Shown: positions 16,876 through 62,086, counted from the stretch's first letter. The stretch is DNA of 64,000 bases from Pseudobdellovibrionaceae bacterium (GCA_947444305.1 CANEZP010000008.1:86682-150681); one strand, 5' to 3'. Numbers and translations are program-made. Notes: a model not told the origin generated them from the letters alone.

Positions 16876-16887
16876 AGTTCCTCCGGC

Positions 16888-21625: not shown

Positions 21626-21656
21626 TTGACCTTCCAGCGGCTGGAACCTTTAAGGT
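21626..21656 (+). promoter_or_regulatory. MerR/CueR-type promoter-operator for the cueR-MCO operon
   Basis: TTGACC-ttccagcggctggaaccttTAAGGT. The 19-bp spacer contains the perfect dyad ttccagc-g-gctggaa. It closely resembles my recollection of the E. coli PcopA operator. Confidence 0.65.
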
Positions 21657-21679
21657 TATTTACAAGGTTGGAGGTCAAT

Positions 21680-22084
21680 ATGACAATAGGTGAACTGGCG
21701 AAATCATCGGGTGTAAATGCGAAACTTATTCGTCATTACGAGTCTATTGGTGTCGTCCCGAAGCCCGGCCGCACAGATTCCGGATACCGGATCTACTCAA
21801 AGACCGACATTCAATTTCTGAAATTTATCAAAAGAGCCCGGGGGCTTGGATTTTCGATGAAAGAAATAAAGAAGCTTATCGGACTTTGGCGAAACAAATC
21901 CCGCGCGAGCAAAGATGTGAAAGCGCTTGCTCTAACTCACGTCAAAACACTGGATGCAAAAATATTAGAGATGCAAGAAATGGCGGATAGCCTTCGTTTG
22001 CTTGCGCGAAACTGTCACGGCGACGCAAGACCGGACTGCCCAATCTTAAGCAGCTTGGAAAACAACGGAGAAAAAAATGACTAA
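21680..22084 (+). CDS. cueR: MerR-family Cu(I)-responsive regulator (CueR-like)
   Basis: MTIGELAKSSGVNAKLIRHYESIGVVPKPGRTDSGYRIYS is a MerR HTH. C-terminal CHGDARPDC metal loop. ATG 21680 follows GGAGG. The longest ORF (21626) would cover the promoter. Confidence 0.85.
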   Translation: MTIGELAKSSGVNAKLIRHYESIGVVPKPGRTDSGYRIYSKTDIQFLKFIKRARGLGFSMKEIKKLIGLWRNKSRASKDVKALALTHVKTLDAKILEMQEMADSLRLLARNCHGDARPDCPILSSLENNGEKND

Positions 22085-24446
22085 TCAAATCGGAGCCTAT
22101 CACCAGAAGTGCGACATAAGATGTTGGACGAACGAGATATTCTTTCTCGTAACCTTAGCCGTTGCGATTCTCTTTTCATTCGGGGCTTTCGGAAAAACCG
22201 TTAAGTACGAGCTGAATATTGAGAATAAGCCGATGAACATGAGCGGCAAAAAGGATGTGAACTTTGCACTCACGGTAAATGGAGGAATTCCAGCCCCGAC
22301 GCTTGAATTTACCGAAGGTGATGATGCCGAAATTCTGGTGGTGAACAAGCTCAAGGAAGAAGAAGTTTCGATTCACTGGCACGGGATCTTACTCCCGCCG
22401 GAAGAAGACGGAGTGGCGTACGTGAATACGCCGCCGATACATGCCGGCACTTCTCGATTGTTCAAGTTCAAGATCCGTCAGAACGGTACCTTTTGGTATC
22501 ACTCGCACACCGCTGTCCAGGAACAAAAGGGTGTTTACGGCGCATTCATCATTCATCCAAAAAAGAAGTCCATATCTTACGATAAGGATGCGGTATTGGT
22601 CTTGAGTGATTGGTCTGATGAGAATGCCGATCAGATTATAAGAAATCTCCGCAAAGATGGAGATTTCTACCTCTACAAAAAAGATTCTGTACGCTCGTAC
22701 GTCGGCGCCGTCCGCGCAGGTGGCCTGAGATCGCACTTATCTAACGAGTGGAGCCGGATGGGCGGAATGGATTTATCCGATGTGGGCTACGATGCGTTTC
22801 TTATTAACGGCAAACGCAACTCGCAGCTCCTCACCGCTCATCTAGGTGAAAAGATTCGCTTAAGGGTTATCAATGCCGGTGCCTCAAGCTATTTCTATTT
22901 GGCAATGGGCGTACCCATGCAGGTCATCTCTGCTGACGGAGTAGATATCAAACCAGTTTCCGCAAAAGAAATTCTGATCGGAATGGCCGAAACTTACGAC
23001 GTGCTCTTTACGGTTCCTGAGCATAAAAACTATGAGATCCGTGCTACGACCCAAGACGTCACCGGATTTGCGTCGGCATGGATTGGAATGGGTGAAAAAG
23101 TACCTGCTCCCAATAAACCTCTTCCTGACATGTATGCAAGTATGGATCATAGCGGACACGGTGGTGCACATTCTGGGCACGGAGCCATGAGCCAGGGAGA
23201 TCACTCGGGTCACGGTGAAAAAGTTCCGAACACCGGTCATGCTCACCACACTGAAGCGTCAATGAAAGAGGATCACTCAAAGCATGGCGGCGGTAATCAT
23301 GCAAATCAACATGGTAGTGAGTCAGATCATTCCGCTCACGCCGCCCAAGTGAAACCTAAGCCGGCCACTACCAAATCCGAGGGTCCGATTGATTGGTCAA
23401 CCCAGTCTGATGCACAACTAAGACAAAATGCAGCGTCGCGGGATCTAAGCGGCGGCGATAAGCCCATCGAAACCCTGACTGTTGATAATCTATCGGCACT
23501 TCAGCCGACTACTTTGCCGAAGGATGTAAAGGTTCACGATGTGAAACTCGTGCTTGGCGGTGATATGCAACGTTACGTCTGGCACATTAACGGCAAGACA
23601 ATTGAACAAGACCGCCTATTGATGATTAACAAGGGTGAGATTGTTCGGTTTACATTTCAAAACGACACGATGATGCATCACCCGATGCATCTTCATGGAC
23701 ACTTCTTCCGCGTAATCAACGAGAACGGCGAAAGATCCCCGCTAAAGCATTCGGTTGATGTGCCCCCGCATAAATCTCGCACAATTGAGTTCTTTTCGAA
23801 CGAGCCGGGACAATGGATGCTTCACTGCCATAATCTTTATCATATGAAAACCGGCATGGCCCGGGTCGTACGTTACAATGATTTTAAACTCACACCCGAG
23901 ATGGCCAAGCACGACGCACACGATCCGCATCTTCACGAACACCTCTATACACACACACAGCTCGAAGCCGCGAGTAATCATGCCAAAGCGGGTTTCCATC
24001 TCATGCGCACGTGGGACGAAATCGAACTCGAAATTGAAAGCGCCAACCTCGACGGGAAGAACTTTTCGTTCGGAGAGGACTGGGAGACCGAGGGTGATTT
24101 GGTCTACCGTAGATGGTTTTCAAACTTCTTTAATTTGTTCGGCGGAGGATCACTTTACGATGAAAAGGGTTTCGGGACGATCGGGATTGGCTACATACTT
24201 CCTCTGTTGATCGAAACGCAGTTTTCCGTGAATCATGAAGGGCGCTTCAGATTCGATGTCGAAAAGCGATTCCAATGGACCAAAAACGTGTTTTCGGACG
24301 TCGATTTTACGTGGAGACCGGATTGGGATGGCGAGCGTGACACCGAGTTTGAAGTCAGCCTGATGTACGGACCTTCTTGGAATTGGTCGGCGGGCCTTAT
24401 GTTTACGGAAAAGAGCGCCGGTATTGGCGCAAAGATTCAGTTTTAA
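22077..24446 (+). CDS. Multicopper oxidase (CopA/PcoA-like) with His/Met-rich insert and a C-terminal CopB-like beta-barrel-type extension
   Basis: 789 aa. Cu sites HWHG, WYHSH, HPMHLHGH, HCHNLYHMKTGM. His-rich tract DHSGHGGAHSGHG.... About 190 aa follow the T1 site and end in GIGAKIQF. Confidence 0.85.
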   Translation: MTNQIGAYHQKCDIRCWTNEIFFLVTLAVAILFSFGAFGKTVKYELNIENKPMNMSGKKDVNFALTVNGGIPAPTLEFTEGDDAEILVVNKLKEEEVSIHWHGILLPPEEDGVAYVNTPPIHAGTSRLFKFKIRQNGTFWYHSHTAVQEQKGVYGAFIIHPKKKSISYDKDAVLVLSDWSDENADQIIRNLRKDGDFYLYKKDSVRSYVGAVRAGGLRSHLSNEWSRMGGMDLSDVGYDAFLINGKRNSQLLTAHLGEKIRLRVINAGASSYFYLAMGVPMQVISADGVDIKPVSAKEILIGMAETYDVLFTVPEHKNYEIRATTQDVTGFASAWIGMGEKVPAPNKPLPDMYASMDHSGHGGAHSGHGAMSQGDHSGHGEKVPNTGHAHHTEASMKEDHSKHGGGNHANQHGSESDHSAHAAQVKPKPATTKSEGPIDWSTQSDAQLRQNAASRDLSGGDKPIETLTVDNLSALQPTTLPKDVKVHDVKLVLGGDMQRYVWHINGKTIEQDRLLMINKGEIVRFTFQNDTMMHHPMHLHGHFFRVINENGERSPLKHSVDVPPHKSRTIEFFSNEPGQWMLHCHNLYHMKTGMARVVRYNDFKLTPEMAKHDAHDPHLHEHLYTHTQLEAASNHAKAGFHLMRTWDEIELEIESANLDGKNFSFGEDWETEGDLVYRRWFSNFFNLFGGGSLYDEKGFGTIGIGYILPLLIETQFSVNHEGRFRFDVEKRFQWTKNVFSDVDFTWRPDWDGERDTEFEVSLMYGPSWNWSAGLMFTEKSAGIGAKIQF

Positions 24447-24467
24447 TATAAATAAAAGGAGCGACAT

Positions 24468-24845
24468 ATGACAAAAAAAGCCACATCCCTACTTCTCACT
24501 CTAGCCACAAGCATTCTTTTTTGGGGCGTCACCGCTTCCGGCGCCGGCGAGGACTGGAAAATTGTTCCGAATAAACAGGTCTGTATGGTGACCAACGCGC
24601 ATTTTTCCCGGCCGCAGATCCCGGTCGAACAAGACAATAAAACCTATTATGGCTGCTGCGAGAACTGCAAAGCCACTATCCAAAAAAATGCAACTTCGAG
24701 GTCGGCGACCGATCCGCAGTCTAAAAAGTCAGTGGATAAGGCGACGGCAATTATCGCTGCGAACGATGCTGGCGAGGTTATGTACTTTGAGACCAAAGCC
24801 AATTTTGAAAAATACGTACACAACCTGAAGAGTATAAAAAGATGA
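24468..24845 (+). CDS. Secreted YHS/TRASH-like putative metal-binding protein
   Basis: 125 aa. Signal peptide. QVCMVTN....KTYYGCCENCKATIQKN resembles a YHS-type module. Lies in the copper operon. Confidence 0.5.
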   Translation: MTKKATSLLLTLATSILFWGVTASGAGEDWKIVPNKQVCMVTNAHFSRPQIPVEQDNKTYYGCCENCKATIQKNATSRSATDPQSKKSVDKATAIIAANDAGEVMYFETKANFEKYVHNLKSIKR

Positions 24846-24860
24846 GCTTAACAAACACCG

Positions 24861-25361
24861 ATGACGTCTAATTTTAAAATCAATTTAACTCTGCTTACTT
24901 TAGGTGTCTTAATTATCACCATGGTGGGAGTAACTGCTTCTGGGCATGAAAAGGTCCAGCACCTAAATCATGGAGATAAAGCCAAGGCCGTGAGTCCAGA
25001 GGTTCTAGCGAAGATAAATTTGTTTTACGAATCGTCCGTAAAATCTATCTTTAAGAACAGTTGTTTTGATTGCCACAGTTCCACTACCCGCTACCCATGG
25101 TATTCGGAGATTCCCGGAGCGAAGCAGGTCATCCAGAATGATATTGCGGAAGCAAAAAGCCATTTGGATATGAGTGATGGGTTTCCATTTATAGGCCATG
25201 GCAGTCTAAAGGAAGATCTAGAGGCAATTCGCAAATCTATCAAAGACGAGTCTATGCCGCCATTTCGCTATCGAATCCTGCATGGGAGTTCGAGGCTCAG
25301 CGATGAACAAAAACAGACGGTTCTCGAATGGTTCGATTCAAGCATCGCACTACTAAAATAA
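24861..25361 (+). CDS. Haem-binding-domain (Haem_bd-like) membrane-anchored protein
   Basis: 166 aa. CFDCHSSTTRYPWYSEIPGAKQVIQNDIAEAKSHLDMS matches the CxxCH...PWY pattern of that domain as I recall it. Confidence 0.65.
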   Translation: MTSNFKINLTLLTLGVLIITMVGVTASGHEKVQHLNHGDKAKAVSPEVLAKINLFYESSVKSIFKNSCFDCHSSTTRYPWYSEIPGAKQVIQNDIAEAKSHLDMSDGFPFIGHGSLKEDLEAIRKSIKDESMPPFRYRILHGSSRLSDEQKQTVLEWFDSSIALLK

Positions 25362-25663
25362 GACTAAGTGGTAGCGTCTTTTAACATCCTGGTTCTCACC
25401 ACATCGATCTCTAAATCCAATCGGATTCCCAAATGCATCCTTGGCGGCATTATGATCCCCCTAAACCTGTCCAATCTTTGTTTCGTTGGTTTGGGATGGT
25501 TGCGGGTCTTCCTCCCCCATGCAAATCTGTGGGCTTATGCGGGTCAACCCATGTCATACTGCTGCCTATTTAAGCATTTGCTGACATATTGGGTCGGAGC
25601 TAAATTCTCGGAATTGTTAAAACTCAAGTAATTCTATATACCTTTAAAACGAATATCGCGGCA

Positions 25664-25682
25664 CCTGCCACCCCATCCAATT
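25664..25682 (+). repeat. att-type direct repeat of the tRNA-Gln 3' end (junction island A / island B)
   Basis: cctgccaccccatccaatt, 19/19 identical to 14220-14238. Immediately followed by the second integrase gene. Confidence 0.7.
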
Positions 25683-25687
25683 CTTTT

Positions 25688-26692
25688 CTAAACATTCGAA
25701 ACCAAACGCAATTTTGAGACGGGTTTTTTCGGTGCGGGCTTTTGCGGGACAGAATCGCCCCCAAACATTTTATCCGCTCCCCCATCCACTTTAAAAACAT
25801 CGCCAAGCGCCTTTGAAATCTTCTGCTTCTGATGATCAGTTTCGCCCGTATATCTCCGAGTCACCCTCACTGAAGTGTGACCTAAGAATCTCGATACAGC
25901 GTCGATGTCGCCAGTCGCATCGTTTGCTAGAGTCGCGGCCGTTCTTCTCATGAAATGCGTTCCGCTAACGTGATTCAAACCCAGCGAACCCAAAACCATG
26001 TTGTAGTAAGTGGCAATCGTCTTCCTATTTACGGGAAGACCCTTCTTACTCACGAACAACGGATTGCTCGGATCACTTTGCTTAATCACATCTTGAAGTA
26101 CCGGAACCAACTGCTCAGGGATCGGCAAACGCCGTACGCGCTTTGTCTTCGTGTACTCTTTCACCGACGGCAGCCAGGTCCTTAGATCCCAGTGAACACA
26201 ACGACGAATCGTTATGACCTTCTTTTCAAGATCTATGCAGTCTTTGTAGAGGCCGCAGACTTCACCGATCCTCAGGGCAAAAAAGTACTGCAGAAGAGCG
26301 ACTACGAAATAAGTGTCATTACGTTTTTTAAGCTCTTGCAGGAACTTCGTCGCATCTTCTGAATCGAGGTACTTCACGGAACCATCGGAACTTTCAATGA
26401 GCACGGTCCTTTTGCGAGGCTTCTTAAACGAAGGCACATTATAGTTAACGCCCTCCTCAACTTCTTCTCTATAAAATCTTAAGATGACCCTTAGCAGTTG
26501 CCATTCTTTCTCGAACGATTTTCTCCGAAAGCTTCGAGGAAAATCGTTGAGCCAGAATTGCGCTAGCGAATTCAAAACCTTCCCGTCGATATCCTTAGCC
26601 GGGTAATCAGCTAAAAAATCGAGAGCCGGAAGAAGTTTCTCGTACGTTTTTACCGAACATTCGGTTATATTATCAGTCAGCATTTGTTTCAT
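25688..26692 (-). CDS. int: Tyrosine recombinase / integrase, paralog of 14244-15335
   Basis: 334 aa. ALRIGE, HFMRRT, LGHTSVRVTRRY. The C-terminal 111 aa are 81/111 identical to integrase 1 by manual alignment. Confidence 0.9.
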   Translation of the reverse strand: MKQMLTDNITECSVKTYEKLLPALDFLADYPAKDIDGKVLNSLAQFWLNDFPRSFRRKSFEKEWQLLRVILRFYREEVEEGVNYNVPSFKKPRKRTVLIESSDGSVKYLDSEDATKFLQELKKRNDTYFVVALLQYFFALRIGEVCGLYKDCIDLEKKVITIRRCVHWDLRTWLPSVKEYTKTKRVRRLPIPEQLVPVLQDVIKQSDPSNPLFVSKKGLPVNRKTIATYYNMVLGSLGLNHVSGTHFMRRTAATLANDATGDIDAVSRFLGHTSVRVTRRYTGETDHQKQKISKALGDVFKVDGGADKMFGGDSVPQKPAPKKPVSKLRLVSNV

Positions 26693-26721
26693 AAATTGAC
26701 TACAAAACGAAAGGAAAGAAA

Positions 26722-27132
26722 ATGAAAAGAACCGGTAGACTTGCGATCCCAGTTTTGGCCCTTACGCTATTAACAACCAATCTATATGGGAGAGAAAAAG
26801 CAATGACTTCAGAAAAAGTAAAAATAGCGGTTACCATCCGTCTTGAAGCTAAACCAGGTAAGGAGGTCGAGTTGGCCGAATTGCTAACTTCCGCTGCGCA
26901 AGTCGTCGCCAGCACGGAACCAAAGACTTTATTTTGGTATGCCACCAAAGTTAACAGTCGCACTTTCACAATTAATGATGGCTTCGCCGATGAAACAGGC
27001 TTGAAAGCCCATTTTGATGGTAAGGTAGCCGCTTTACTGAAGTCTAAAGCAAGCGACCTGATCGTTGGCGGCTGGGAACAAGGCGTTTTGCCTAACGTAG
27101 TCCAAAGTGATATTCTTTCGAGCATTAAGTGA
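26722..27132 (+). CDS. Secreted ABM (antibiotic-biosynthesis-monooxygenase-like) domain protein
   Basis: 136 aa. Signal peptide, then KIAVTIRLEAKPGKEVELAELL...TLFWYATKVNSRTFTINDGFADETGLKAH, a typical ABM ferredoxin-like pattern. Confidence 0.6.
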   Translation: MKRTGRLAIPVLALTLLTTNLYGREKAMTSEKVKIAVTIRLEAKPGKEVELAELLTSAAQVVASTEPKTLFWYATKVNSRTFTINDGFADETGLKAHFDGKVAALLKSKASDLIVGGWEQGVLPNVVQSDILSSIK

Positions 27133-27156
27133 GTCCGAAAAGGTAGACGATAAATA

Positions 27157-27705
27157 ATGAGAAAACCGCTGAAGCCGAAATCTGAAATCGTCACAGATTT
27201 GAGTCGAGTTTTTCGCGCTCATGGCTTTGATGGAGCCACGTTGACGAAGCTGGTTGAAGAAACTGGACTTGAGCGAGCGAGTCTATATCACCACTTTCCA
27301 AACGGAAAAGCAGATATGGCAGAGGCGGTTTTACTCCAAGCACTATTGGATTTGGAAGCCGACGTGATTAATTTTCTTAAAGAAGAGGGGGATGCAAAAG
27401 CGAAGCTCAAAAGAATGTTTAACGCCGTCGAGGCGTTTTACAACAATGGCAACGATGTTTGTTTCATCACGATTTTCTCGCTTGGCCACCAGAGCAAGAA
27501 AATTGATGAGATGATGAGTGGAGCGATTCGTACTTGGCTTAAGTATCTGGAGAAGACGTTGGCAGATTCAAAAGTTGATGACCCCAAAAAATCAGCTCAA
27601 CAACTTCTATCAACAATTCAAGGAGGTCTCATTCTGGCCCGTACATTAAATGATCCTTCAGTTTTTAGAAACTCCTTAAAGCCTTTACGCGTAGCTTGGC
27701 TGTAG
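27157..27705 (+). CDS. TetR-family transcriptional regulator
   Basis: 182 aa. FRAHGFDGATLTKLVEETGLERASLYHHFPNGKADM is a TetR HTH. Confidence 0.85.
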   Translation: MRKPLKPKSEIVTDLSRVFRAHGFDGATLTKLVEETGLERASLYHHFPNGKADMAEAVLLQALLDLEADVINFLKEEGDAKAKLKRMFNAVEAFYNNGNDVCFITIFSLGHQSKKIDEMMSGAIRTWLKYLEKTLADSKVDDPKKSAQQLLSTIQGGLILARTLNDPSVFRNSLKPLRVAWL

Positions 27706-27845
27706 ACTTTGAACTAATGACACTTCGTTCTAGACCGGTCGGCTATGAGCAGGTGCCAGGCTTCCTGACTCTACCTCAATCGGAATTCATCGTAACGGTT
27801 TGACTTGCTGACGGTTGCGAACAAAACGGAGCCTTTTGGACCGGT

Positions 27846-27879
27846 AAAATCAAAAGAAAGCGGACCAATATTGGTCCGC
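27846..27879 (-). terminator. Rho-independent terminator of the serine recombinase gene
   Basis: Perfect 20-bp palindrome gcggaccaatattggtccgc (27860-27879), followed on the minus strand by tttcttttgatttt. It begins 14 nt after the stop. Confidence 0.65.
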
Positions 27880-27892
27880 CTAGAATGGGTAT

Positions 27893-28603
27893 TTAGCCGC
27901 CTACTTCCTGTTCTCCATCAGTCGAAACGCCCTGGAACTTCATTTGAATTTTTGCGAGCTCTCTTTCTGCTTCGGCCCGCTTCTCAATTTCTGCTTTAAG
28001 AGCTTCCTCTTCACGCTTCATCGCCGCTCTCTCGGCCGAAACACTCCCGTGACTGCATTTCGCAATTAGGCTGATCTGGCGATATGAAATGCCACTTTTT
28101 AATAGTTTCCTAATTAAATCTGAATCGCGCATTTTCTTTCGACCAATCAGCCTCCCCTTCGCCCGAGCATTTGCGAGGCCGATCTTTACCCGGTCTGCGA
28201 TTAAATCCCGTTCGAGCTGAGCAATGCTTGCAAGAATACTGAAGATCGCAACACCTATGGCGGAGTTCGTATCGATTCTTTCTGATATTGAAATGAACTG
28301 AACTCCTTTTGACTTAAACTTCGACAATGCGCTCAGTAAATGGGTGGTGCTTCTTGCAAACCGACTGAAGCTATAGACGACGATGGTAGAGATCTCTCCG
28401 GCTTCAACCGCCGCCATCATCCGATCCAGAGCCGGACGACTGGACTTAGTTCCACTAATGCCGCCGTCCGAATAAAATTCGACATTGGTCATATGATTCT
28501 GCTCACACCAAGTTCTCAATACTCTGACTTGTGATTCTAAGCCGGTCTCTTGATCGGCTGTACTGGTTCTTGAATAGCAAGCGATCCGCTTGTCATCTGA
28601 CAT
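27893..28603 (-). CDS. Serine recombinase (resolvase/invertase family)
   Basis: 236 aa. IACYSRTSTADQ (catalytic Ser), resolvase core VYSFSRFARS, C-terminal HTH (ISYRQISLIAKCSHGSV) and a charged coiled tail. Confidence 0.9.
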   Translation of the reverse strand: MSDDKRIACYSRTSTADQETGLESQVRVLRTWCEQNHMTNVEFYSDGGISGTKSSRPALDRMMAAVEAGEISTIVVYSFSRFARSTTHLLSALSKFKSKGVQFISISERIDTNSAIGVAIFSILASIAQLERDLIADRVKIGLANARAKGRLIGRKKMRDSDLIRKLLKSGISYRQISLIAKCSHGSVSAERAAMKREEEALKAEIEKRAEAERELAKIQMKFQGVSTDGEQEVGG

Positions 28604-28692
28604 TCGTTCTCCGTTTTGTTGTTGCTAGTGGGTAATGTATTTTGAAAAAAGAAAAAACGTTGGCTTGGGTTTGGCTAAACCATTTCAGCTGT

Positions 28693-28716
28693 CCCGCACT
28701 TTTTCGAAAGTGCGGG
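28693..28716. repeat. Perfect 10-bp-stem palindrome upstream of the serine recombinase gene
   Basis: cccgcacttt-ttcg-aaagtgcggg, 90 nt upstream of the recombinase start. Function unknown (candidate recombination or regulatory site). Confidence 0.5.
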
Positions 28717-28845
28717 ATTCTGTGGGATTTGACCTGTCACTTAGCTGCATAAGCAGGCACTTCTTGTCCGACTGAGTCGCGAGCAACTAATTGAAATTAT
28801 TAAAACTTGAGTAAATTCAAAAACTTCAAACTGGATAAAGTGGCC

Positions 28846-28866
28846 CCTGCCACCCCATCCAATTTC
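28846..28866 (+). repeat. att-type direct repeat of the tRNA-Gln 3' end (right end of island B)
   Basis: cctgccaccccatccaatttc, 21/21 identical to 14220-14240. Confidence 0.7.
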
Positions 28867-29020
28867 ATTTCCTTTAGTCGTTTACACTTCCCTACAATTC
28901 TTAGATGGTCCGCATGTTGACCACGCATTCGCGTGGATGGCGTGACAAGCGTTCGAGCCGACCGCATCCACGGACGGACAATCTCCGCTGGGAACATGAG
29001 GACTTGCGATTACCCGTCAG

Positions 29021-29033
29021 CCCCATCCAATTT
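29021..29033 (+). repeat. Partial att core copy
   Basis: ccccatccaattt, identical to 14227-14239 of the tRNA end. Only 13 nt. Confidence 0.45.
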
Positions 29034-29127
29034 TATGGATTATGTAAGGAATTTTTAAAATTGAAAGTCGAAAGGAGAATGTAGCGGTACGAGTATAACC
29101 TAAACAAGTGTTTTACCCGGTCCCAAA

Positions 29128-29877
29128 CTACATTGAGGTGCCTTTATTGTGGACCAAGATCCCTTCCACGATAAAGTTGTTCGGTGGTAATTCCAGGCCG
29201 ATGTGAAAGACAGTCCCAGTTCCGGCGCTTAAATCGAACGCTCCTCTAAAAACTAACGATGCCTCACATCCATCAACTTTAATAAGGCGATCCGTGGGAG
29301 CCATGTCACCGATGGCTACATAGTTTTTAGCATCAGCTGAATAGAATGGATGATCAGATGTAGTTTCGATGGCTTTACCCGTCGGAGACAAATTGCACAG
29401 ACGGCCAAATATTCTATTTTGAATGATCTGGATGGACTTCACTCGATTTATAATCTGGCGCTTACGATCAATATCCCAGGAAATAATCTCGTCCCCATTG
29501 CCGATGCTCGCGATCGCCACGTAGCCCTTGGGAGTCAGAACCCGCATTGCAGACGTAAAGCAACCGTACTTCGAAACCCCTCGGAGTCTTGTTTCCTCGG
29601 ACGCTAATCGCCGAATTTCATCGTGTCCAAATTTGGTCCCGGCTGATTTCTCCATCGATAGTGTTTCAATTGCAAATTGGCGGCGATCAGGCAGTACTAA
29701 TCCGTTGATTTCAATGTCCTCAACTATAGATGCAATTTTCTCTATTCTAGAAGAGTCCCTGGTGCTCACAGGAGGGTTTGCTGCACCAACCTTAGATGCT
29801 GTTCCTAAGAACAATAGTGACACGAAGATCAAAATAAGAATTTGCAGATACGATTTCATTATGGCCCGACGATGCAA
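29128..29877 (-). CDS. Secreted protein with C-terminal Hint (Hedgehog/intein-like, BIL-type) autoprocessing domain
   Basis: 249 aa. Signal peptide, about 75-aa N-terminal segment, then G-C-F (C106) opening a Hint domain: CFTSAMRVLTPKGYVAIASIGNGDEIISWD, TTSDHPFYS (TxxH block), ...GILVHN near the C-terminus. Confidence 0.75.
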   Translation of the reverse strand: MHRRAIMKSYLQILILIFVSLLFLGTASKVGAANPPVSTRDSSRIEKIASIVEDIEINGLVLPDRRQFAIETLSMEKSAGTKFGHDEIRRLASEETRLRGVSKYGCFTSAMRVLTPKGYVAIASIGNGDEIISWDIDRKRQIINRVKSIQIIQNRIFGRLCNLSPTGKAIETTSDHPFYSADAKNYVAIGDMAPTDRLIKVDGCEASLVFRGAFDLSAGTGTVFHIGLELPPNNFIVEGILVHNKGTSM

Positions 29878-30040
29878 TAATCATGGGGCGCTGTAAATTG
29901 CGGTGTTGAAGCATGCAATTTCAGTTGCGTACAATCGATCAACGACGATGAAGATTTTTCCTGAACAAAATCAGATAATGTAGGTCCCGCTTATTCGGAA
30001 ATGCCGCGGACCTAGATCAATTGCTTAGTACGTGCCCCAC

Positions 30041-54019: not shown

Positions 54020-54838
54020 ATGAGAGAACTCAGTTTAAATTTAAAATCGTTGGCGCATCAAAGCTTGAACGAACTCGGGGGTGCGTCGAGCGTCCTCACC
54101 CATCAGCGGAGGGACCACGTCGATCTTGATCGGATGCTTCAGCGGCTCGGCGAGCTGAGGCCTGAGCAGCAGCGGGATCAATTGTTACGCATCTACCGTC
54201 TCGTGTTTCCGCACGCGTTTGCCGAAGAATCCGTGCTCTGGCCCGTCATACGGCGATTGCTACCCGACGGCCATCAACTCACCCTTAAAGTAGAACAGGA
54301 ACACCAAGAAATTAATGAGCTGGTCGCGAGACTAGAATTGATGAACGTCCACTCGCCGGAACGGCAACTGATCCTCGCGCGGGTCATCGAGCTGCTCCGG
54401 GCTGACGTGCGAGACGAAGAAGACGATCTCTTGCCTCGCTTGCAAAATAAACTTAGCCACTCGCAACTACGGTGGCTCGGCATCGCGTGGGAAGCGGCCC
54501 GGCGAATCGCTCCGACTCGCGCACATCCGATCGTCTCGAGACGCCCGCCCGGCAACGTTCTCGCGACTTTGCCTCTGACCGTGATCGATCGAAGCCGTGA
54601 TTTCATAGATTCGCTCGCCTACCCGGGCTCCGTACTCGCTCCGTTATTGAACCGCCTGAGCTTGGCGCTTTGTAAAGCTTCATTCCAGGTCGAACGACTT
54701 CCGGGCATGGAACGCGGCGAAGATTCATCGACCCGGGTCGAGCGAAAAGATGGTTCCATTTTGAGAGCGGTCGTCGTGTCGGTCGCGGCCTTGGCGGCGT
54801 TGCTCCTGCTGGGTAAGACCCGCCCACGAAAAGCGTAA
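54020..54838 (+). CDS. Hemerythrin (HHE cation-binding) domain protein with C-terminal TM
   Basis: 272 aa. HQRRDHVDLDRML, HAFAEESVLWP, EQEHQEINELV. C-terminal hydrophobic anchor. Confidence 0.75.
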   Translation: MRELSLNLKSLAHQSLNELGGASSVLTHQRRDHVDLDRMLQRLGELRPEQQRDQLLRIYRLVFPHAFAEESVLWPVIRRLLPDGHQLTLKVEQEHQEINELVARLELMNVHSPERQLILARVIELLRADVRDEEDDLLPRLQNKLSHSQLRWLGIAWEAARRIAPTRAHPIVSRRPPGNVLATLPLTVIDRSRDFIDSLAYPGSVLAPLLNRLSLALCKASFQVERLPGMERGEDSSTRVERKDGSILRAVVVSVAALAALLLLGKTRPRKA

Positions 54839-54941
54839 ATAAATTCCGATCCGAATAAGACTGTTGTAATTCGGGCATAGATATTGCTCGGGTCAGTGAA
54901 GTCTTATGTTACGAACAGAATTTGTTTACGCGCGAGGAAAA

Positions 54942-55934
54942 ATGGTGCTCAAACGGGGCTTAGTATTTATTTTAGTGGCACTTTTCTCGAGTCAGGGGCA
55001 CGCGCATTCCAAACGTTTGTGTTCAACCGATCTCGAAACGAACGCAATCAGCGTCGCGAAGCAAAAGGTTGAAGACCTCCTCCGGAAAAATAATCGTGTC
55101 TTGCGGGCGCCGGTCGCGGACCTACAAATCTACATCTCGGGCAGTCTTCTTCGAAAAGCCCGTGCGCTCGTTAATGAGCATAAGGTGTCCAACGGGCTTT
55201 CCGAACAAAAAGTACGTACGCTGCTGGATTCCATCGTTCGACATCCACGGAATAAAAATATCTTCGATTTCTCGGCGTTTCGGGCGAACGATGCATTTTC
55301 TGATTTCGTAAAATACTTAGTCGAACCGGACGACTTAAATTTCGCGCTCAGATTGCGTTTGTTCGTTAACCGGCAAATTTGGATGGGATATTACGGCCGG
55401 CAAAATACTTCCGGATACATGGCTGCGCAAACCGCCTTTGAGAATTACATCGCGCTTTCAAAAGAGCGTGAGGTTTTGTTCGGAGAAGATCAGGAAGATT
55501 ACGGAAGCAAAACCGTGCGCGAACTTGGTTTCTACAGACACCGAATCCGGGTTTTGATTGACGCCATCGAACGACATTATTTGCACAACGTTACCCTGCC
55601 CGGCGAAGTCAACTCTCTGATCGATGAGATGATATTCTCAAACGCGGGAATCTACGAATTCCGTGATCGCATCGCGGACGTTGAATCAAATTTAAATGCG
55701 TCATCAAACGTCGACGAGGCTTGGGATTTAAAATCATTAGCGGCGGAAGGCGGGATGATCACTTCGTTAGCCCAATTCGAGTCCGAGGAAAAACGCCCTT
55801 CGTTGCGCAACATCGTTGCGCGCGACAACCGCAAAAGGTTGATGCCCGAGGGGCATTACGAACGCATAAGCTATCTTGAAGAGCAGCTTAAAAAAGTGAA
55901 CCAAATTCTTTTCCGTGCAGGTTCAGGCAACTAG
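54942..55934 (+). CDS. Secreted hypothetical protein
   Basis: ATG 54942 follows GAGGA. Signal peptide MVLKRGLVFILVALFSSQGHA. No motif recognised. Confidence 0.55.
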   Translation: MVLKRGLVFILVALFSSQGHAHSKRLCSTDLETNAISVAKQKVEDLLRKNNRVLRAPVADLQIYISGSLLRKARALVNEHKVSNGLSEQKVRTLLDSIVRHPRNKNIFDFSAFRANDAFSDFVKYLVEPDDLNFALRLRLFVNRQIWMGYYGRQNTSGYMAAQTAFENYIALSKEREVLFGEDQEDYGSKTVRELGFYRHRIRVLIDAIERHYLHNVTLPGEVNSLIDEMIFSNAGIYEFRDRIADVESNLNASSNVDEAWDLKSLAAEGGMITSLAQFESEEKRPSLRNIVARDNRKRLMPEGHYERISYLEEQLKKVNQILFRAGSGN

Positions 55935-56085
55935 AGCGGGCCGGGATAACCGAACCGCTGTTTTGATCTCTTCGCCGTAAAACTTTCAGAACTGCCCTCT
56001 TCTTTAACATTTAGGTAGGTTTTCTCTCAACGCATCGACGCCGTGGCCGAGGTCGGCTGGCGGTCGGATTGCAATTCGCTCAACC

Positions 56086-57180
56086 ATGATACTAACCACT
56101 GAAGATGTCCTAAGCCTGCAAGGGCCAGCTCTCGCCCGCCTCACCGAGGAATTCGGGGCGGTTCGTGACGTTCATTCGCTCTACCTTCACTTTCGATTTC
56201 AATACCTCCAGGGTAACGTCGCAGCGATGCAGAACCTCCTTGAGGAGCATACAAATCTGATTCAGGCTGAAGGATCTTGGCTCAGAGAACTTTTGCGGCT
56301 TCGCCTAGCCATTAGAACGAAGCAAGATTTAGCGGAAATTTGCGCGCGGGCGAGCGAAGCGTTTGCCGTCCTGACTGCCCCGGCTTGGCGGGGGGAAGCA
56401 TTCATGGTGTTGGCCATGGCCTTAGAAGATGCGCAAAACGATCTGGCGGCGCAAAGCGCTTATCAAAAAAGCGCCGGCGCTTTTCGCGCGGCCGGTATGC
56501 CCAGAAAATCTTTGATCGCACGCTACAACGGGCTAGCGTCACAAACGCGCATAGAAGCCGGTAAAAAATATTTCTTTGAACTACAATCGTTTGCCGACGA
56601 GGCGATTTCGCTCCGTTGTTTTGACCTTGCCGGTACGGCGCTCGCAAATCTTTCGCGTGATTGCCAATTGGCCGGGGCACCCGAACTTGCGTTGAAGCAT
56701 TGCGCGGAAGCCCTGCACTACTTGCGCGCGCACGACTTCGGTACCCTTCAGTACTTCCTGACCGTAGCCCACCATCTTAATTTACTTCTGCAGCTTTCGA
56801 AGTGGGATGAGGCCGTCGTTTACTACGAAGAGTTACGGCTCTCACCCTTCAACGAAACGAAAGAGATCAGCACGGTCATTACCGACTATCTCAACGCGAA
56901 GAAAGAAGAACCCGATTACGCGCACTTGCCACTGACCTGGCGAGAACGCCGGAAAGATCTGCTGGCGCAAAAATCAGTTCGCTTTACCGCGAAAGAGCGG
57001 CAGCTAGTGGAAAGTTTGACGTGCGGACCGTTAAGTCTCGGGGAGCTTACCGGTCGATTGTACGGCGCTAAAATTGATTTCGAAAGCGGCGTCGCGCGTA
57101 CCAAACAGCTTCTTCATCGCTTGAAACAAAAAGCGCCCCAACTGATCGTGCGCGAAGATGACAAATATGTTTTGGCGTAG
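56086..57180 (+). CDS. Putative regulator: TPR-like helical N-domain plus C-terminal winged-helix
   Basis: 364 aa. The C-terminal FTAKERQLVESLTCGPLSLGELTGRLYGAKIDFESGVARTKQLLHRLKQK resembles an OmpR/wHTH-type output. Overlaps the next gene by 23 nt. Confidence 0.5.
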   Translation: MILTTEDVLSLQGPALARLTEEFGAVRDVHSLYLHFRFQYLQGNVAAMQNLLEEHTNLIQAEGSWLRELLRLRLAIRTKQDLAEICARASEAFAVLTAPAWRGEAFMVLAMALEDAQNDLAAQSAYQKSAGAFRAAGMPRKSLIARYNGLASQTRIEAGKKYFFELQSFADEAISLRCFDLAGTALANLSRDCQLAGAPELALKHCAEALHYLRAHDFGTLQYFLTVAHHLNLLLQLSKWDEAVVYYEELRLSPFNETKEISTVITDYLNAKKEEPDYAHLPLTWRERRKDLLAQKSVRFTAKERQLVESLTCGPLSLGELTGRLYGAKIDFESGVARTKQLLHRLKQKAPQLIVREDDKYVLA

Positions 57181-59176
57181 CCTTTTAACCATACTCTTTG
57201 CGGCCCTGACCATCCCCGCCGCGCAGGCCCTGCCTCAAGGAATCGTCGAAGTCTATTCGGCCTACACGGATGTGCAAAACGGCAATGTCAAAGTCGTTAA
57301 GGGCTATGGCTTCATCGTGAAGCTCGTATTCGATTCGACGGATGCGAAAGGTGGGCACGTCTTCGTGATCCAAACCGTCTCGCATTTAAGCCAAGGCGGT
57401 TTGGGGCCCGATCGGCTGCCCCGCACGGCGGTAAAGTTTAACCTGAATGATGGCCGCGAAGTCGTCGGCCGATATGGCCTTGCTCCATTAGCGACCGAAC
57501 TCGGGCCCGTGACGAAGGGGATCGAATCCGAAGCGATGCTCCTGGGTTCGCGTTTTTCTAACGTCAAAGATAGTGAGCTTCTGATTATCGATCCGGGCTA
57601 TCGCGGTCGCGCGCACATTTCAGAACTCATCGAGATCCGCGTAGAGCGCGGACAGATTATATCGTACGAAATGAAGATTGATCCGAGCACGATGCTTGAA
57701 AGCAAGGACGGCTGGCGGGTCAAAAAAATTCGTAAGGATTTAGGCATTATCTGTCCCGTTGAATTTAAAAGTTGTTCGGTGGATGACGACGCCGTCCTCG
57801 GCGATGGTCCGATGAACCACTTTTCTCATCTGATCAAAGTGGAAGGCTACATTCAAACCGAATACGATTGGCTGGTCTTCACGCGCACCGAACAAGGCAT
57901 GAGCGGTTTGCCGGTCGTTTCCTTTATGGAGTCGGCTTCGAACGCGGGCCACGTAAAGAAATTTAAATCGAGCTTAGTTGGTTCTGTCATGGGCGCGATC
58001 AGCTCAAGCTCACGCCAGAGCGACGAGACCTGGGCTACGTTCCTCGACCCGCTCGCCGATTTCCTGAGCTGGATGAACGCCGGCGGACAAAGCTCGTCGC
58101 TCGCCGACGTGCGAGTCATCGGCGCGGAAAAAGTTTTTTGGGAACTCGAGGCCGGAATTTTACGGCGTAAGCTGATCGGTGAGAACCACACTTACGTGGA
58201 ATGGTCGCCCGATACTCTGCCCGATCTAACTTCCGCCCCGAAAGCCCGCTGCGAGAACGGCGGCGCTTTTCGCCATGACAACGGCGGCGACCTGCCCGGT
58301 GACCCGTGCGGGGTGACCAAAATGGCGACCGGTAAAGGTGGATTTAAAATCGCAGACTCTACCGGTCGGTTCAGCAAATCTAACTTGTTAATCATGTCCC
58401 ATCCGGCGCATACGCGGATCGTACCGGCAACCGTCGCGGGCATGGCGCTTTCGCATTACGCAAAGGCGTTTGATTCGGCCAGGCTGCGGGCCGGTGGCTA
58501 CGCGGGCATGACCTTCACCGAGTATACGGATGAAGTGCGGTCGGTCCGCTGGGACCCGTTTCGTGAATTGTACGATTCATTTTACCGGCGTGCGCCCGTC
58601 ACCGGAGAGGATCGTGATTTCCTCGCCAGGCAGAAAGTTGATGTCGCAGATCTCGTGGTTGAAAAATTCACGGGCCAACTGAACGTGAGCAAGGTCTTGC
58701 GCAACGGTGGCGCTCAAGTCGTCTCCGATGCGAAAGCGCAGCTCGAAATTCTGTCGGTTATTCGCAAGGACGGTGAACTCGCCGGCAGCTTTTTCAAGTT
58801 GTCGTTTGAAGGCCACGAGATCAGCCGTTGGATCAGCTTCTCGGAAGATCGTGATATTTACCGGGGTGAGATCCAAACTTTTGCCCCCTACGTCACCGTT
58901 CGGTTCAAGGGTAAACCCGCGAGCCTTGAGCTTGCGGGCATGCTCTCGCACAACCCCGACCGCATGAACATTCCCGACTTGCGTTTAAATCACGTGCGGG
59001 CCATCACCCCGGCGGAGTTACCCGCCGGTTTAAAAACACCCGTCCATAAATTCTTCGAGATGAAGAAGATCGACGGTGATGTTTCGATTAAAACGGTCTT
59101 TAGCCTGCAAACCGAGAGTGAAACCTTTTACTTCAGCCTAGCCGCTTCGCAAACGGCCAAGGCTTCGTCTTGGTGA
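57158..59176 (+). CDS. Secreted protein with N-terminal trypsin-like (S1/Trypsin_2-like) domain and large unknown C-terminal region
   Basis: 672 aa. Signal peptide. GYGFIV...VIQTVSHLS (His), DSELLIID (Asp), TEQGMSGLPVV (Ser) in the canonical order. Confidence 0.55.
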   Translation: MTNMFWRSLLTILFAALTIPAAQALPQGIVEVYSAYTDVQNGNVKVVKGYGFIVKLVFDSTDAKGGHVFVIQTVSHLSQGGLGPDRLPRTAVKFNLNDGREVVGRYGLAPLATELGPVTKGIESEAMLLGSRFSNVKDSELLIIDPGYRGRAHISELIEIRVERGQIISYEMKIDPSTMLESKDGWRVKKIRKDLGIICPVEFKSCSVDDDAVLGDGPMNHFSHLIKVEGYIQTEYDWLVFTRTEQGMSGLPVVSFMESASNAGHVKKFKSSLVGSVMGAISSSSRQSDETWATFLDPLADFLSWMNAGGQSSSLADVRVIGAEKVFWELEAGILRRKLIGENHTYVEWSPDTLPDLTSAPKARCENGGAFRHDNGGDLPGDPCGVTKMATGKGGFKIADSTGRFSKSNLLIMSHPAHTRIVPATVAGMALSHYAKAFDSARLRAGGYAGMTFTEYTDEVRSVRWDPFRELYDSFYRRAPVTGEDRDFLARQKVDVADLVVEKFTGQLNVSKVLRNGGAQVVSDAKAQLEILSVIRKDGELAGSFFKLSFEGHEISRWISFSEDRDIYRGEIQTFAPYVTVRFKGKPASLELAGMLSHNPDRMNIPDLRLNHVRAITPAELPAGLKTPVHKFFEMKKIDGDVSIKTVFSLQTESETFYFSLAASQTAKASSW

Positions 59177-59757
59177 TCGAAAAAGCGGAAGTCTTTCACC
59201 ACCTCCTGACCGCGTTTCAATCGGTAACCGCCGGTGCAAAAGAGGGCGCGGCATTGCTCGTAAAAGCGTTCGCAGAGCATACCGTTAACCGGTTCGGGCG
59301 ATGTTGCTTTCTGGTAAGGACCTTCCGCTTTCAAGACCCGGTATTCAACATCAACCGCTTCGGGAATATAGATAACCAGCGGGCGATGTTTTTTGACGTC
59401 GATCACTAAGCTACTCCGGCCATAGATCGTCTCGGGTTTTGTTTCCGAACAGGCTTTCATCGTACCCGTATATCCCCCGTTCGCCTGTACATCGTAGTAA
59501 GGGTAGTACTCTTCAATTAGGGCCGACTTAATCTCGCCTTTAAGAACTTTCCCGTTGCAGTCGGAGTTGGGCAAGAACTTCGAAATGATGAGCTCCACCT
59601 TGTGCTCATTCGAGGATAATTTTGGAAGATCGATGACCACGCGACGTTTACCGTCTTTCGTTTCGGGATACTGGTCAAGGAGGCCGGTGGCTCCGGCGGT
59701 TGTGCCGCAAATAAATGTCAGGACGAGCGCGATTTGAGTGAACATAGAATTCTCCAT
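59128..59757 (-). CDS. eco: Ecotin-family serine protease inhibitor with Cys-rich C-terminal extension
   Basis: 209 aa. Signal peptide. YPETKDGKRRVVIDLP, VELIISK...DCNG, reactive-loop-like GTMKAC, RPLVIYIPEAVDVEYRVLKAE parallel to E. coli ecotin as I recall it. Confidence 0.85.
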   Translation of the reverse strand: MENSMFTQIALVLTFICGTTAGATGLLDQYPETKDGKRRVVIDLPKLSSNEHKVELIISKFLPNSDCNGKVLKGEIKSALIEEYYPYYDVQANGGYTGTMKACSETKPETIYGRSSLVIDVKKHRPLVIYIPEAVDVEYRVLKAEGPYQKATSPEPVNGMLCERFYEQCRALFCTGGYRLKRGQEVVKDFRFFDHQDEALAVCEAARLK

Positions 59758-60007: not shown

Positions 60008-62086
60008 GTGGTTGCAACCGTTGTACGTCATTTCAAAAAAGCCGCCGATCATCCCGGGAGTGAACTGGGTCAGGGCCTTCTACGCGTCGCCGTCAACATC
60101 CCCTTTTCCATATTTGGCTGGCAGTTGCTCGCCGGCACCACGCTGCTCCCGAACCCTCTGCTTTTCTTTGCGGTCGGAAACTTCAATGCCCTTCTGATCT
60201 TGCTACACATTATTTGGCGACCAAACCCGAACGATACGAGACGCATTCTCGGCACCATCAACGATCAATTGTTGATCACCTATTTTCTGTATTACATCGG
60301 CCTCACGGGCGCCGTGTACTTTTTCGTCTTTTCTTTCTTAACGGTAGGCAACGGCTTCCGCTACGGTGGGCGCTACCTTGCGTTCTCGGGTTTACTCGGT
60401 GGCGCGGGAATTTTAACGCTGATCTTTTTATCGCCGGCTTGGGTCGGGCACACCGATATGGGATGCAGTGTTTTGCTCTCGCACATCATGGTGAGCGGTT
60501 ATACCGGGCTACTGCTGCACCGGTTGCGAACGACCCAACAACGAGAATTGAAAAGCCATTCCATCCTGAGTTCGATTATCGAGAACAGCCCGTCGGTTAT
60601 TTTCGTGAAAGATGCCGACGGAAGATACTTATTAGTTAACAAAAAATTTGAACAGAATTTAGGTTTTACCGCGGACCAGGTCATCGGTAAAACCGGCCGC
60701 GAGATCTATCCTGCGGAGTTCGCCAAAGACTATGCTCAACACGATAAGCTCGTGCTTGAATCAAAATCCCACATTCAACACGAAGAGATCGCTCCGCACC
60801 CGGACGGCTTACATTCTTATTTCACGGTAAGATTTCCGATCCGCAATCCGAGCGGCGAGATCGTCGGCATCGGCGGCATCGCCACCGACGTGACCGAAAA
60901 CAAAAAGTTTGAGACCGAACGCGCGGAACTTCGAATTCGTGAGCGCACCGCGGTCGAGGCCTCTTTAATGAAGTCATCCTTTCTCGCGAACATGAGCCAT
61001 GAACTGCGAACACCTTTGCACGGCATAATGGGTATGGCCGACCTTCTGCGCTCGACGATTCTGACGGCCGAGCAGAAGTCCTTCAACGATACGGTCACCC
61101 AGTGTGCGGAGTCCCTGCTCACCCTCGTGAACGATATTTTAGATTTATCGAAGGCCGAAGCCGGCAAGATCGAGCTGGAATCGATTGACTTCGATCTCCA
61201 CAAAGTGACGACGGATCTAGACATGATGTTGCAGTTAGCCGCGCAACGAAAAGGATTGAGACTCAGTTTCCAAATTGAGGATAACGTTCCGCAATTCCTT
61301 AAGGCCGATCCCACGCGGATTCGCCAAGTTTTGCTGAACCTATTGACCAACGCGATCAAATTCACCGATTCGGGTTATGTTAGCGCGGTCATCCGAGCCG
61401 AGCGCCGGGAAGATAAAATCTATTTGCGTTGCGAGGTGCAAGACACGGGCATCGGCGTGAAAGAAGAAGCACGCGAACGTTTATTTATGCCCTTCTCCCA
61501 AGCGGACGCTTCGACCACGCGCAAATTCGGCGGTACGGGATTGGGTCTCTCGATTTCGAAACGTTTAGTGGATTTAATGAAAGGCGAAATCGGCGTACAA
61601 GCCCGCTTAGGCGGAGGCACGACGTTTTGGTTCACGTTACCCGTCATCGAAGTGGGTCAGCTCGCGCCGGGTCCCGAAGCCGTGGCGCTTCCGTACTTGC
61701 ATCATGCATTGAAGGTATTAGTCGTGGAGGACAACCGAGTTAACCAAATGCTGGCGATTCGCATGCTCCAAACGATGGGTCACCAAAACCGCGTGGTCAA
61801 TAACGGTCTCGAAGCTTTGATGGCGCTGAATCAAAGTCACTACGATTTGATTTTGATGGATTGCCACATGCCGGAGATGGACGGTCTCGAAGCTACGCGC
61901 ATGATTCGGGCCGGTAAGACCCTGGGCCCACGCGACACACGCATCATCGCACTTACCGCCAACGCGATGGCCGGTGACCGCGAGCGCTGTTTAGAAGCGG
62001 GAATGAATGACTACGTGGCCAAACCCATGAAAATATCGGATCTGCAATCGGCCATCGACCGGGTCATGGCGAAACCGACCGGCTAA
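60008..62086 (+). CDS. Hybrid sensor histidine kinase (TM sensor, PAS, HisKA, HATPase_c, REC)
   Basis: 692 aa. H-box SHELRTPLH, N/G boxes (LLTNAIKF, DTGIG, GGTGLGLS), receiver VLVVEDN...LILMDCHMPEMDG...K. Confidence 0.9.
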   Translation: MVATVVRHFKKAADHPGSELGQGLLRVAVNIPFSIFGWQLLAGTTLLPNPLLFFAVGNFNALLILLHIIWRPNPNDTRRILGTINDQLLITYFLYYIGLTGAVYFFVFSFLTVGNGFRYGGRYLAFSGLLGGAGILTLIFLSPAWVGHTDMGCSVLLSHIMVSGYTGLLLHRLRTTQQRELKSHSILSSIIENSPSVIFVKDADGRYLLVNKKFEQNLGFTADQVIGKTGREIYPAEFAKDYAQHDKLVLESKSHIQHEEIAPHPDGLHSYFTVRFPIRNPSGEIVGIGGIATDVTENKKFETERAELRIRERTAVEASLMKSSFLANMSHELRTPLHGIMGMADLLRSTILTAEQKSFNDTVTQCAESLLTLVNDILDLSKAEAGKIELESIDFDLHKVTTDLDMMLQLAAQRKGLRLSFQIEDNVPQFLKADPTRIRQVLLNLLTNAIKFTDSGYVSAVIRAERREDKIYLRCEVQDTGIGVKEEARERLFMPFSQADASTTRKFGGTGLGLSISKRLVDLMKGEIGVQARLGGGTTFWFTLPVIEVGQLAPGPEAVALPYLHHALKVLVVEDNRVNQMLAIRMLQTMGHQNRVVNNGLEALMALNQSHYDLILMDCHMPEMDGLEATRMIRAGKTLGPRDTRIIALTANAMAGDRERCLEAGMNDYVAKPMKISDLQSAIDRVMAKPTG

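Follow-up and report, generated by a model that had tools for sequence, protein, structure and literature searches.

A rare exported protease-like protein and a convergent, extended ecotin in a Pseudobdellovibrionaceae bacterium: a candidate enzyme-inhibitor module

A stretch of 64,000 nucleotides (nt) from a Pseudobdellovibrionaceae bacterium (GCA_947444305.1 CANEZP010000008.1:86682-150681), here called the window and numbered from its first letter, contains three overlapping open reading frames (ORFs) that bring together a putative regulator, an exported protein with protease-like motifs and a variant of the protease inhibitor ecotin. The regulator gene (56086-57180, plus strand) encodes 364 amino acids (aa) and is followed on the same strand by the gene of the exported two-domain protein (57158-59176, 672 aa), which meets the ecotin variant gene (59128-59757, minus strand, 209 aa) tail to tail. 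The convergent 3′ ends share 49 nt (59128-59176, both strands), and the regulator and the protease gene share 23 nt of the plus strand (57158-57180). The coordinates and overlaps stated in the initial annotation, made from the sequence alone, were all correct. The 672-aa ORF has a second ATG at 57167, where the gene calls of its homologues begin and which leaves a 14-nt overlap with the regulator; in relatives, this head overlap measures 14-17 nt. The true start of the protease is likely to be at 57167, giving a protein of 669 aa.

The N-terminus of the exported protein, MTNMFWRSLLTILFAALTIPAAQA/LP, was read by eye, without a predictor, as a Sec signal peptide (57158-57229, plus strand; residues 1-24) that would be cleaved after AQA. 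The mature N-terminus LPxG is kept in the family: in an alignment of the eight known members, which include the window protein and are 22-97% identical, P26 is invariant and ALPxG conserved. The domain that follows (57230-58102, plus strand) was assigned to the chymotrypsin fold (PA clan) of serine proteases from Foldseek comparisons of an AlphaFold2 (AF2) model and from invariant residues. Its putative catalytic triad, all on the plus strand, consists of His76 (57383-57385) within VIQTVSHLS, Asp138 (57569-57571) within DSELLIID and Ser249 (57902-57904) within QGMSGLPVV; the three motifs lie where they had been placed before, and the codons were verified. T73, S75, H76, L77, Q79, G80, G247, S249, G250 and P252 are invariant in all eight members. 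Asp138, inside a DxxLLxL strand motif, is retained in seven of them and is unaligned in P0015, the most divergent member, and Cys199 and Cys206 of the same domain are conserved. The catalytic-type order His, Asp, Ser is thereby present and conserved in the protein, and the family motifs TxSHL, DxxLLxL and GxSGxP resemble the chymotrypsin-fold signatures TAAHC, DIALLKL and GDSGGP. Judged by sequence conservation, the three motifs exceed chance.

The AF2 model, built on the eight-sequence alignment, has a mean predicted local distance difference test (pLDDT) of 75.5 and a predicted template modelling score (pTM) of 0.79. Its N-domain (residues 29-311) is beta-rich and well predicted (pLDDT about 70-91). 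His76 falls in a short helix following a strand, Asp138 opens a strand, Ser249 directly precedes one, and the domain closes with a C-terminal helix, as expected for a chymotrypsin fold; model and alignment together set each motif on the secondary-structure element expected for enzymes of this type. The confident Foldseek matches in the PDB were PA-clan proteases exclusively, with tobacco etch virus (TEV) protease at the top (E 1.9e-4, prob 1.0, TM-score over target length (TMt) 0.48), accompanied by Deg2, DegQ, Deg9, DegS (TMt 0.46) and HtrA1 (TMt 0.48-0.51). A Pandoravirus trypsin-like protease (E 1.5e-4) was found in BFVD together with picorna-like 3C regions, a torovirus 3C-like protease and a phage periplasmic serine protease. 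Over both libraries, the confident matches span E 1.5e-4 to 1e-2, prob 0.9-1.0 and TMt 0.46-0.51, and the predicted model has the two beta-barrels of the PA clan.

With HtrA, DegS and DegQ (S1C) and with TEV NIa (C4), the window protein shares the predicted double beta-barrel, the sequence order of His, Asp and Ser with the residues around them, and the C-terminal helix, but its sequence has no detectable homologue among Pfam or PDB proteases. No match in Pfam, NCBIfam, PADLOC or PHROGs was obtained for the 672-aa protein, for its domain pieces or for any of the eight members, and phmmer and profile searches returned no PDB sequence for the 672-aa protein, its isolated N-domain or any other member. 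The Trypsin and Trypsin_2 hidden Markov models (HMMs) matched none of the eight, and membership of peptidase family S1 is unsupported, since these members have no family HMM or sequence match. The initial annotation had described a secreted S1-like protease and proposed HMM or structural confirmation. Its trypsin-type fold was upheld by the predicted structure, which matches PA-clan proteases only, and by the conserved triad; its HMM arm yielded nothing in Pfam or NCBIfam, and the S1 label, taken in the family sense, found no support. The model supports a chymotrypsin fold with a conserved triad for the N-domain, and the protein is presumably catalytically active. As far as modelling can tell, the family belongs to the PA clan yet escapes current sequence models. 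It is also extremely rare, unlike other PA-clan families: a word-indexed search found 2 relatives of the protease in 5.8e9 clusters and an exhaustive HMMER profile search found 7 related clusters among 1.84e9 representatives. The family was found neither in 185,579 GTDB species genomes (one genome per species) nor in a scan of JGI metagenome contigs, and it is confined to a few uncultured Bdellovibrionales-like lineages.

Beyond the protease domain, an inter-domain linker of low confidence (58211-58339, plus strand; residues 352-394, pLDDT 33-44) contains an AF2-disordered loop bracketed by Cys365 and Cys384 (58250-58309, plus strand; residues 365-384). In the window, this loop holds a single copy, as NGGAFRHDNGG, of an octapeptide repeat G[GSN][AG][FI]RxDN that is present in 1-3 tandem copies across the relatives, at homologous loop positions in P0011-P0015. 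Two Cys bracket the loop in most family members, and R364, G368, R372, D374, N375 and G376 are invariant around the repeat. The repeat loop ranks with the most conserved features of the protease family. The linker leads into a C-terminal beta-rich domain (58343-59143, plus strand; residues 396-662, AF2 pLDDT about 75-94) that has no Pfam match and weakly resembles half-barrels of LolB (3wjt/1iwm, Foldseek prob 0.44-0.51), AttH (2ich) and DUF1329 (4z48). The window protein differs here from the HtrA/Deg proteins, having no PDZ domain and carrying instead the octapeptide-repeat loop and this beta-rich C-domain of 270 aa.

The 209-aa product of the convergent gene has a signal peptide (residues 1-23) and an ecotin domain (59302-59676, minus strand; residues 28-152). 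The Pfam model PF03974 (Ecotin) matches residues 28-143 with E 2.2e-19 and 70.1 bits against a cut-off of 22.2, PDB ecotin chains match with E 1.8e-12, and the NCBIfam ecotin equivalog model reaches 74.7 bits, below its cut-off of 162. The proposal of an ecotin homologue is borne out by these matches: as far as sequence goes, the protein is confirmed as a true member of the ecotin family (PF03974 / MEROPS I11) and not as an orthologue-grade match. Alignment with PDB ecotins places the reactive loop at T99-M100(P1)-K101-A102-C103 (59449-59463, minus strand), with TMKAC set on E. coli TMMAC and Met100 as P1. In this alignment, Cys67 (in DCN) pairs with Cys103, matching the loop-tethering disulfide of the E. 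coli Cys50-Cys87 type. The dimerisation strand PLVIYIPEAVDVEYRV is retained and is followed by a C-terminal extension of 57 aa (59131-59301, minus strand) with four cysteines (162, 169, 174 and 203), which takes the protein beyond the single-domain form of about 140 residues.

This extension is shared with a relative, P0004, which is 59% identical overall and in which all four Cys are invariant (consensus CERFYEQCRAxFCTGG...AVCEAAxLK). Identity at the three codon positions of the extension is 0.76/0.74/0.41, a pattern that indicates a coding frame under purifying selection, and on this basis the extension is real coding sequence. It has no Pfam or PDB relative. The extended form is represented by only 2 clusters in 5.8 billion, all other ecotin matches being canonical ecotins of 158 aa with at most 37% identity, and it was not found in the scans of GTDB species genomes and JGI metagenome contigs. 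It and the protease are equally rare, and it was encountered only next to the protease; the canonical ecotin relative examined has no such protease neighbour. Compared with E. coli ecotin, the window variant retains the signal peptide, the Cys pair flanking the loop, the T-M(P1)-x-A-C loop and the C-terminal dimerisation strand, but is just 33% identical and adds the conserved 57-aa, 4-Cys extension. An added C-terminal domain has otherwise been reported among ecotins for Leishmania ISP3 (PMC9904509). Two other genes of the window may bear on the ecotin variant. Its DegP/HtrA (6087-7556), canonical with a Trypsin_2 and two PDZ domains, is another potential periplasmic target. A hybrid PAS histidine kinase with a receiver domain (60008-62086) is divergent from the ecotin gene, from which it is separated by an intergenic region of 250 bp, and could be an ecotin regulator.

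The regulator has no signal peptide and is taken as a cytoplasmic one-component protein. Its AF2 model (pLDDT 86) shows an all-helical solenoid of 16 helices, resembling tetratricopeptide repeats (TPR; 56086-56895, plus strand; residues 1-270), after which three helices and a beta-hairpin (302-363) make up a C-terminal winged-helix-like domain (56983-57177, plus strand; residues 300-364) with the topology H302-311, H318-326, H332-349, E354-357, E360-363. In Foldseek, the RRNPP peptide receptors NprR and Rap come out first (E 1.6e-4 to 7e-3, TM 0.42-0.53), and the generic TPR proteins LGN, KLC1, alpha-SNAP and OGT score nearly as high. No significant Pfam winged helix-turn-helix or TPR match was obtained (TPR_1, E 0.048), and the OmpR/PhoB Trans_reg_C HMM matched neither the whole regulator nor the C-terminal 69 aa of six members. 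An hhalign comparison of the C-terminus with PhoB/OmpR DNA-binding domains, for which approximate sequences were used, kept 65 columns in register but fell short of significance (E 0.084). Calling this protein TPR plus winged helix describes its predicted structure and assigns it to no family; that it binds DNA and senses some signal is presumed.

Coupling of the regulator to the protease gene, which the initial annotation had already pointed out, turned out to be the most conserved linkage of all. The regulator family is rare like the protease (5 clusters), and its homologues (34-57% identity) adjoin every protease homologue except one, their partner being an exported protein of 613-672 aa in all lineages. 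The two genes are adjacent in seven of the eight lineages with readable flanks, and in five of the six such relatives outside the window's own lineage. The regulator overlaps the protease start in L001 and L003 (window lineage), in the P0002 contig, in L004-6 (P0011), L007-9 (P0012) and L010 (P0013), and in L013. In P0015 (L097 5001-7963, NCBI GCA_050184215.1), a regulator homologue (hhalign E 7.5e-38) lies directly downstream with a 4-nt overlap, and this inverted order with the regulator still adjacent indicates that the linkage survived a rearrangement. P0014 (L011) is the sole lineage without a regulator neighbour. Regulator and protease form the conserved core. A conserved operon extending beyond them was considered and rejected, the neighbours past the regulator being unrelated (the 342-aa upstream gene in the window, small divergent genes in L007 and L010). 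Upstream of the regulator in the window, a hemerythrin-domain protein with a C-terminal hydrophobic tail (54020-54838) and the 342-aa signal-peptide protein (54906-55934) are kept only in the closest strains and do not travel with the module. In a 97%-identical strain (L001), a 553-bp insertion (L001 8022-8574; window 55953-55959) lies shortly upstream of the regulator gene and includes a compact gene for a signal-peptidase-I-like protein of 164 aa (Pfam Peptidase_S26; SGSMEPT, GDN...SxDSRYWG); the window and L003 are without this insertion. The modules of P0011 and P0012 (L004-L006 and L007-L009), whose proteins are 39% and 27% identical to the window protein, respectively, co-occur in samples DRR438488, DRR438490 and DRR438491, and may be either paralogues within a single genome or modules of different relatives present together.

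A convergent, overlapping ecotin accompanies the protease in three lineages only. Within the window lineage and in L002, the overlap is 49 nt long throughout (L001, L003, L002), and the ecotin and the protease fragment of L002 are 59% and 79% identical to those of the window. On the JGI contig of P0002, the protease is 41-44% identical, the overlap measures 59 nt and a second ecotin gene is present. The initial annotation had interpreted protease and ecotin either as a self-protection (immunity) pair or as reciprocal antisense regulation and had proposed the conservation of the convergent pair in related genomes as a check. The outcome was divided: the pair is conserved in these three lineages, with the extended ecotin found only beside the protease, and no ecotin lies beside the protease in P0011-P0015.

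The best explanation of the locus is a lineage-restricted module of a Pseudobdellovibrionaceae (predatory-type) bacterium. The cytoplasmic TPR plus winged-helix regulator would be translationally coupled to, and would control, the Sec-exported protein, the N-terminal half of which would be a very divergent chymotrypsin-fold serine protease (His76/Asp138/Ser249) linked by the Cys-bracketed repeat loop to the beta-rich C-terminal domain. In the sub-lineage of the window, the periplasmic ecotin variant would act as a dedicated inhibitor of this endogenous protease, with which it is expected to share a compartment because both proteins carry signal peptides. The Met100 reactive loop of ecotin would bind the active site and keep the protease silent in the producer's periplasm until released or needed, and the 4-Cys extension is a candidate for an additional, specific contact. 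Taken as a whole, with ecotin as the dedicated periplasmic inhibitor of the bacterium's own protease, the mechanism is given about an even chance of being correct. It draws on the intact inhibitory loop and disulfide of the ecotin variant, on the PA-clan fold as the sole consistent structural match of a reasonably confident model in two independent libraries, and on the recurrence of the pair in three lineages, down to 41-44% protease identity. Several observations weigh against it. The Foldseek TM-scores are modest, about 0.46-0.51 of target length; no sequence HMM ties the 672-aa protein to a known protease family; and an hhalign comparison with the DegP of the window stayed below significance (E 0.09), even though GMSGLPV and GNSGGPL are aligned in it. 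Further, five lineages (P0011-P0015) have other genes downstream in place of a neighbouring ecotin, which indicates that the inhibitor is not essential to the module, and one of the three lineages with the pairing, the P0002 contig, comes without DNA sequence.

Ecotin inhibits chymotrypsin-fold serine proteases of many specificities and is understood as armour against foreign proteases; it is held not to target the cell's own enzymes, which reviews exclude (PMC9904509). Contrary to this, the window variant has as its genetic partner a chymotrypsin-fold protease of the same cell, a hint that ecotin here restrains its own bacterium's enzyme and not foreign ones alone. If this were true, ecotin would acquire through the pairing a further role in controlling a weapon that the cell itself makes, and the module would offer a simple two-protein system for testing that role. 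A precedent for the arrangement is found in the KLIKK peptidases of Tannerella, in which the gene of a secreted peptidase lies beside that of an envelope-acting inhibitor, a potempin (PMC9890683). The logic of a secreted peptidase next to an inhibitor acting in the producer's envelope is shared with the window; in contrast, the window inhibitor belongs to the ecotins, which are not known from pairs of this kind, its gene is convergent and overlapping with that of the protease instead of being co-transcribed, the pairing is present in part of the protease family only, and the inhibition is putative. Pseudomonas AprA/AprI and staphopain/staphostatin are further pairs of a protease and a co-encoded inhibitor. 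In the literature, no paper was found that connects ecotin with Bdellovibrio-like bacteria or with a partner protease of the same cell. The parts of the module are of known kinds (an ecotin, a PA-clan protease, a TPR regulator); new are the protease family to sequence models, the ecotin extension and the pairing of ecotin with a protease within the protease/inhibitor theme. Secreted hydrolases are central to the predatory lifestyle of Bdellovibrionales-like lineages, and the conserved coupling to a TPR plus winged-helix regulator points to dedicated sensory control of the protease.

Among the alternatives, the one that survives best is that the ecotin variant shields the periplasm in a general way from foreign serine proteases (of prey, competitors or hosts), as in E. 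coli, and is merely adjacent to the protease operon. The five protease lineages without an adjacent ecotin and the P1 Met, which is the broad-specificity residue of E. coli ecotin, would both agree with such a shield. It is nevertheless unlikely, as an overlapping adjacency of 49-59 nt has been kept across lineages whose proteases are 41-44% identical, the extended ecotin was found only beside this protease, and a predator secreting many proteases would need self-protection. Less probable still is that the 672-aa protein is an inactive chymotrypsin-fold pseudo-enzyme or binding protein, or that the AF2 fold is wrong, and that the ecotin neighbourhood is unrelated to catalysis. The absence of a protease HMM match for any member, a model built from eight sequences only with modest TM-scores, and the unaligned Asp138 of P0015 speak for this possibility; opposed to them are the His and Ser that stay invariant in canonical contexts over 22-97% identity, the restriction of all confident structural matches in two libraries to PA-clan proteases, and an adjacent inhibitor of exactly that fold class, which fits an active enzyme.

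The 49-nt overlap raises the possibility that the convergent arrangement is itself regulatory, with transcriptional interference or antisense RNA making the expression of protease and inhibitor reciprocal. The overlap (59128-59176) codes for the ends of both proteins, SLAASQTAKASSW in the protease and EALAVCEAARLK in the ecotin, and is conserved in three lineages (49, 49 and 59 nt). There is no intrinsic terminator between the two genes, which implies that each transcript must run into the other gene. Moreover, its nucleotide identity to L002 (84%) is above that of the flanks (74% in the protease 3′ flank, 64-65% in the ecotin gene) and places it in the top 4% of 49-nt windows. However, dual coding alone predicts extra conservation. 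The third codon positions of both frames coincide in the overlap, and the comparison with L002 gave 94% identity at positions 1 and 2 and 65% at the shared third positions, which is the pattern that double coding predicts. This phase is the least constraining one, and an overlap in it costs two genes the least. No more than about 16 nt of the overlap code for folded parts of the protease, whose last strand stops near residue 662 (nt 59143); the final 10 residues form a tail that is disordered in the AF2 model and missing in other family members. The ecotin side encodes conserved residues, including Cys203. Two other convergent overlaps were found in the window, both between Pfam-supported genes (7675-8658/8639-9424, 20 nt; 62118-62747/62734-63849, 14 nt), and the convergent neighbours in relatives begin 1-18 nt past the stop; together these indicate a general compaction of the genome. 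Matches to promoter and terminator consensus sequences in the region were at or below shuffle expectation, and Rfam detected no riboswitch or small RNA there. A regulatory overlap is on these grounds improbable. Most likely, the overlap arose as a tolerated side effect of genome compactness and of the extension gained by the ecotin; it is probably not a regulatory device, and the earlier picture of protease and inhibitor locked in antisense found no specific support.

Two further proposals give the regulator and the linker repeat a part in peptide signalling, and both are remote. RRNPP systems have been described in Firmicutes and their mobile elements, and the pair is defined by an adjacent gene for a small secreted propeptide (PMC10075063). 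The window module shares with them a TPR solenoid of similar length, in a predicted cytoplasmic receptor to which generic TPR proteins score similarly, and a regulator gene coupled to the gene of a secreted product. It differs in the position and type of the DNA-binding domain, a C-terminal winged helix instead of an N-terminal helix-turn-helix, in having no adjacent small propeptide gene in any lineage, in its Gram-negative host (Bdellovibrionota) and in the absence of sequence homology. NprR controls a neighbouring extracellular protease gene. In the first proposal, which is very improbable, ecotin would have been recruited through its Cys-rich domain as the dedicated partner of the endogenous protease, which would also cut the tandem G(S/A)GFRxDN peptides from its own linker, the TPR regulator would sense them and ecotin would set the threshold. 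The weakest of all is a true RRNPP-type circuit, a purely speculative reading in which self-processing would release G(S/A)GFRxDN linker peptides to be re-imported and bound by the TPR domain, with ecotin tuning the processing: it would account for NprR and Rap as best structural matches, for the overlap between a receptor gene and that of a secreted product, as in RRNPP pairs (PMC10075063), and for the 1-3 tandem, near-invariant octapeptides in a disordered loop, but generic TPR proteins score almost as high, the DNA-binding domain is C-terminal and of the winged-helix type, the partner has 672 aa and is not a propeptide of about 50 aa, and no processing sites or peptide importer were identified. 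Such a finding, if true, would extend RRNPP-like peptide circuits to a predatory bacterium of the Gram-negative type. That the module stems from a defence system or a phage was rejected, PADLOC and PHROGs having given no match.

As regards the host, the window DegP is 83% identical to that of a Pseudobdellovibrionaceae metagenome-assembled genome (MAG), and its next 18 matches are all from Pseudobdellovibrionaceae, Bdellovibrionales or Bdellovibrionota MAGs. This fits the earlier guess of a host from a predatory lineage; the host MAG itself presumably has a predatory lifestyle. Elsewhere in the window, a tRNA-Gln (14160-14235) abuts a phage-type integrase (14244-15335) and is followed by a copper P-type ATPase (19072-21477), a multicopper oxidase (22077-24446), a second integrase (25688-26692), a resolvase (27893-28603) and a PT-HINT protein (29128-29877); the region 14160-30000 looks like an integrated element carrying copper resistance. 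A MoxR AAA ATPase / DUF58 / VWA (BatA-type) operon lies at 995-4765.

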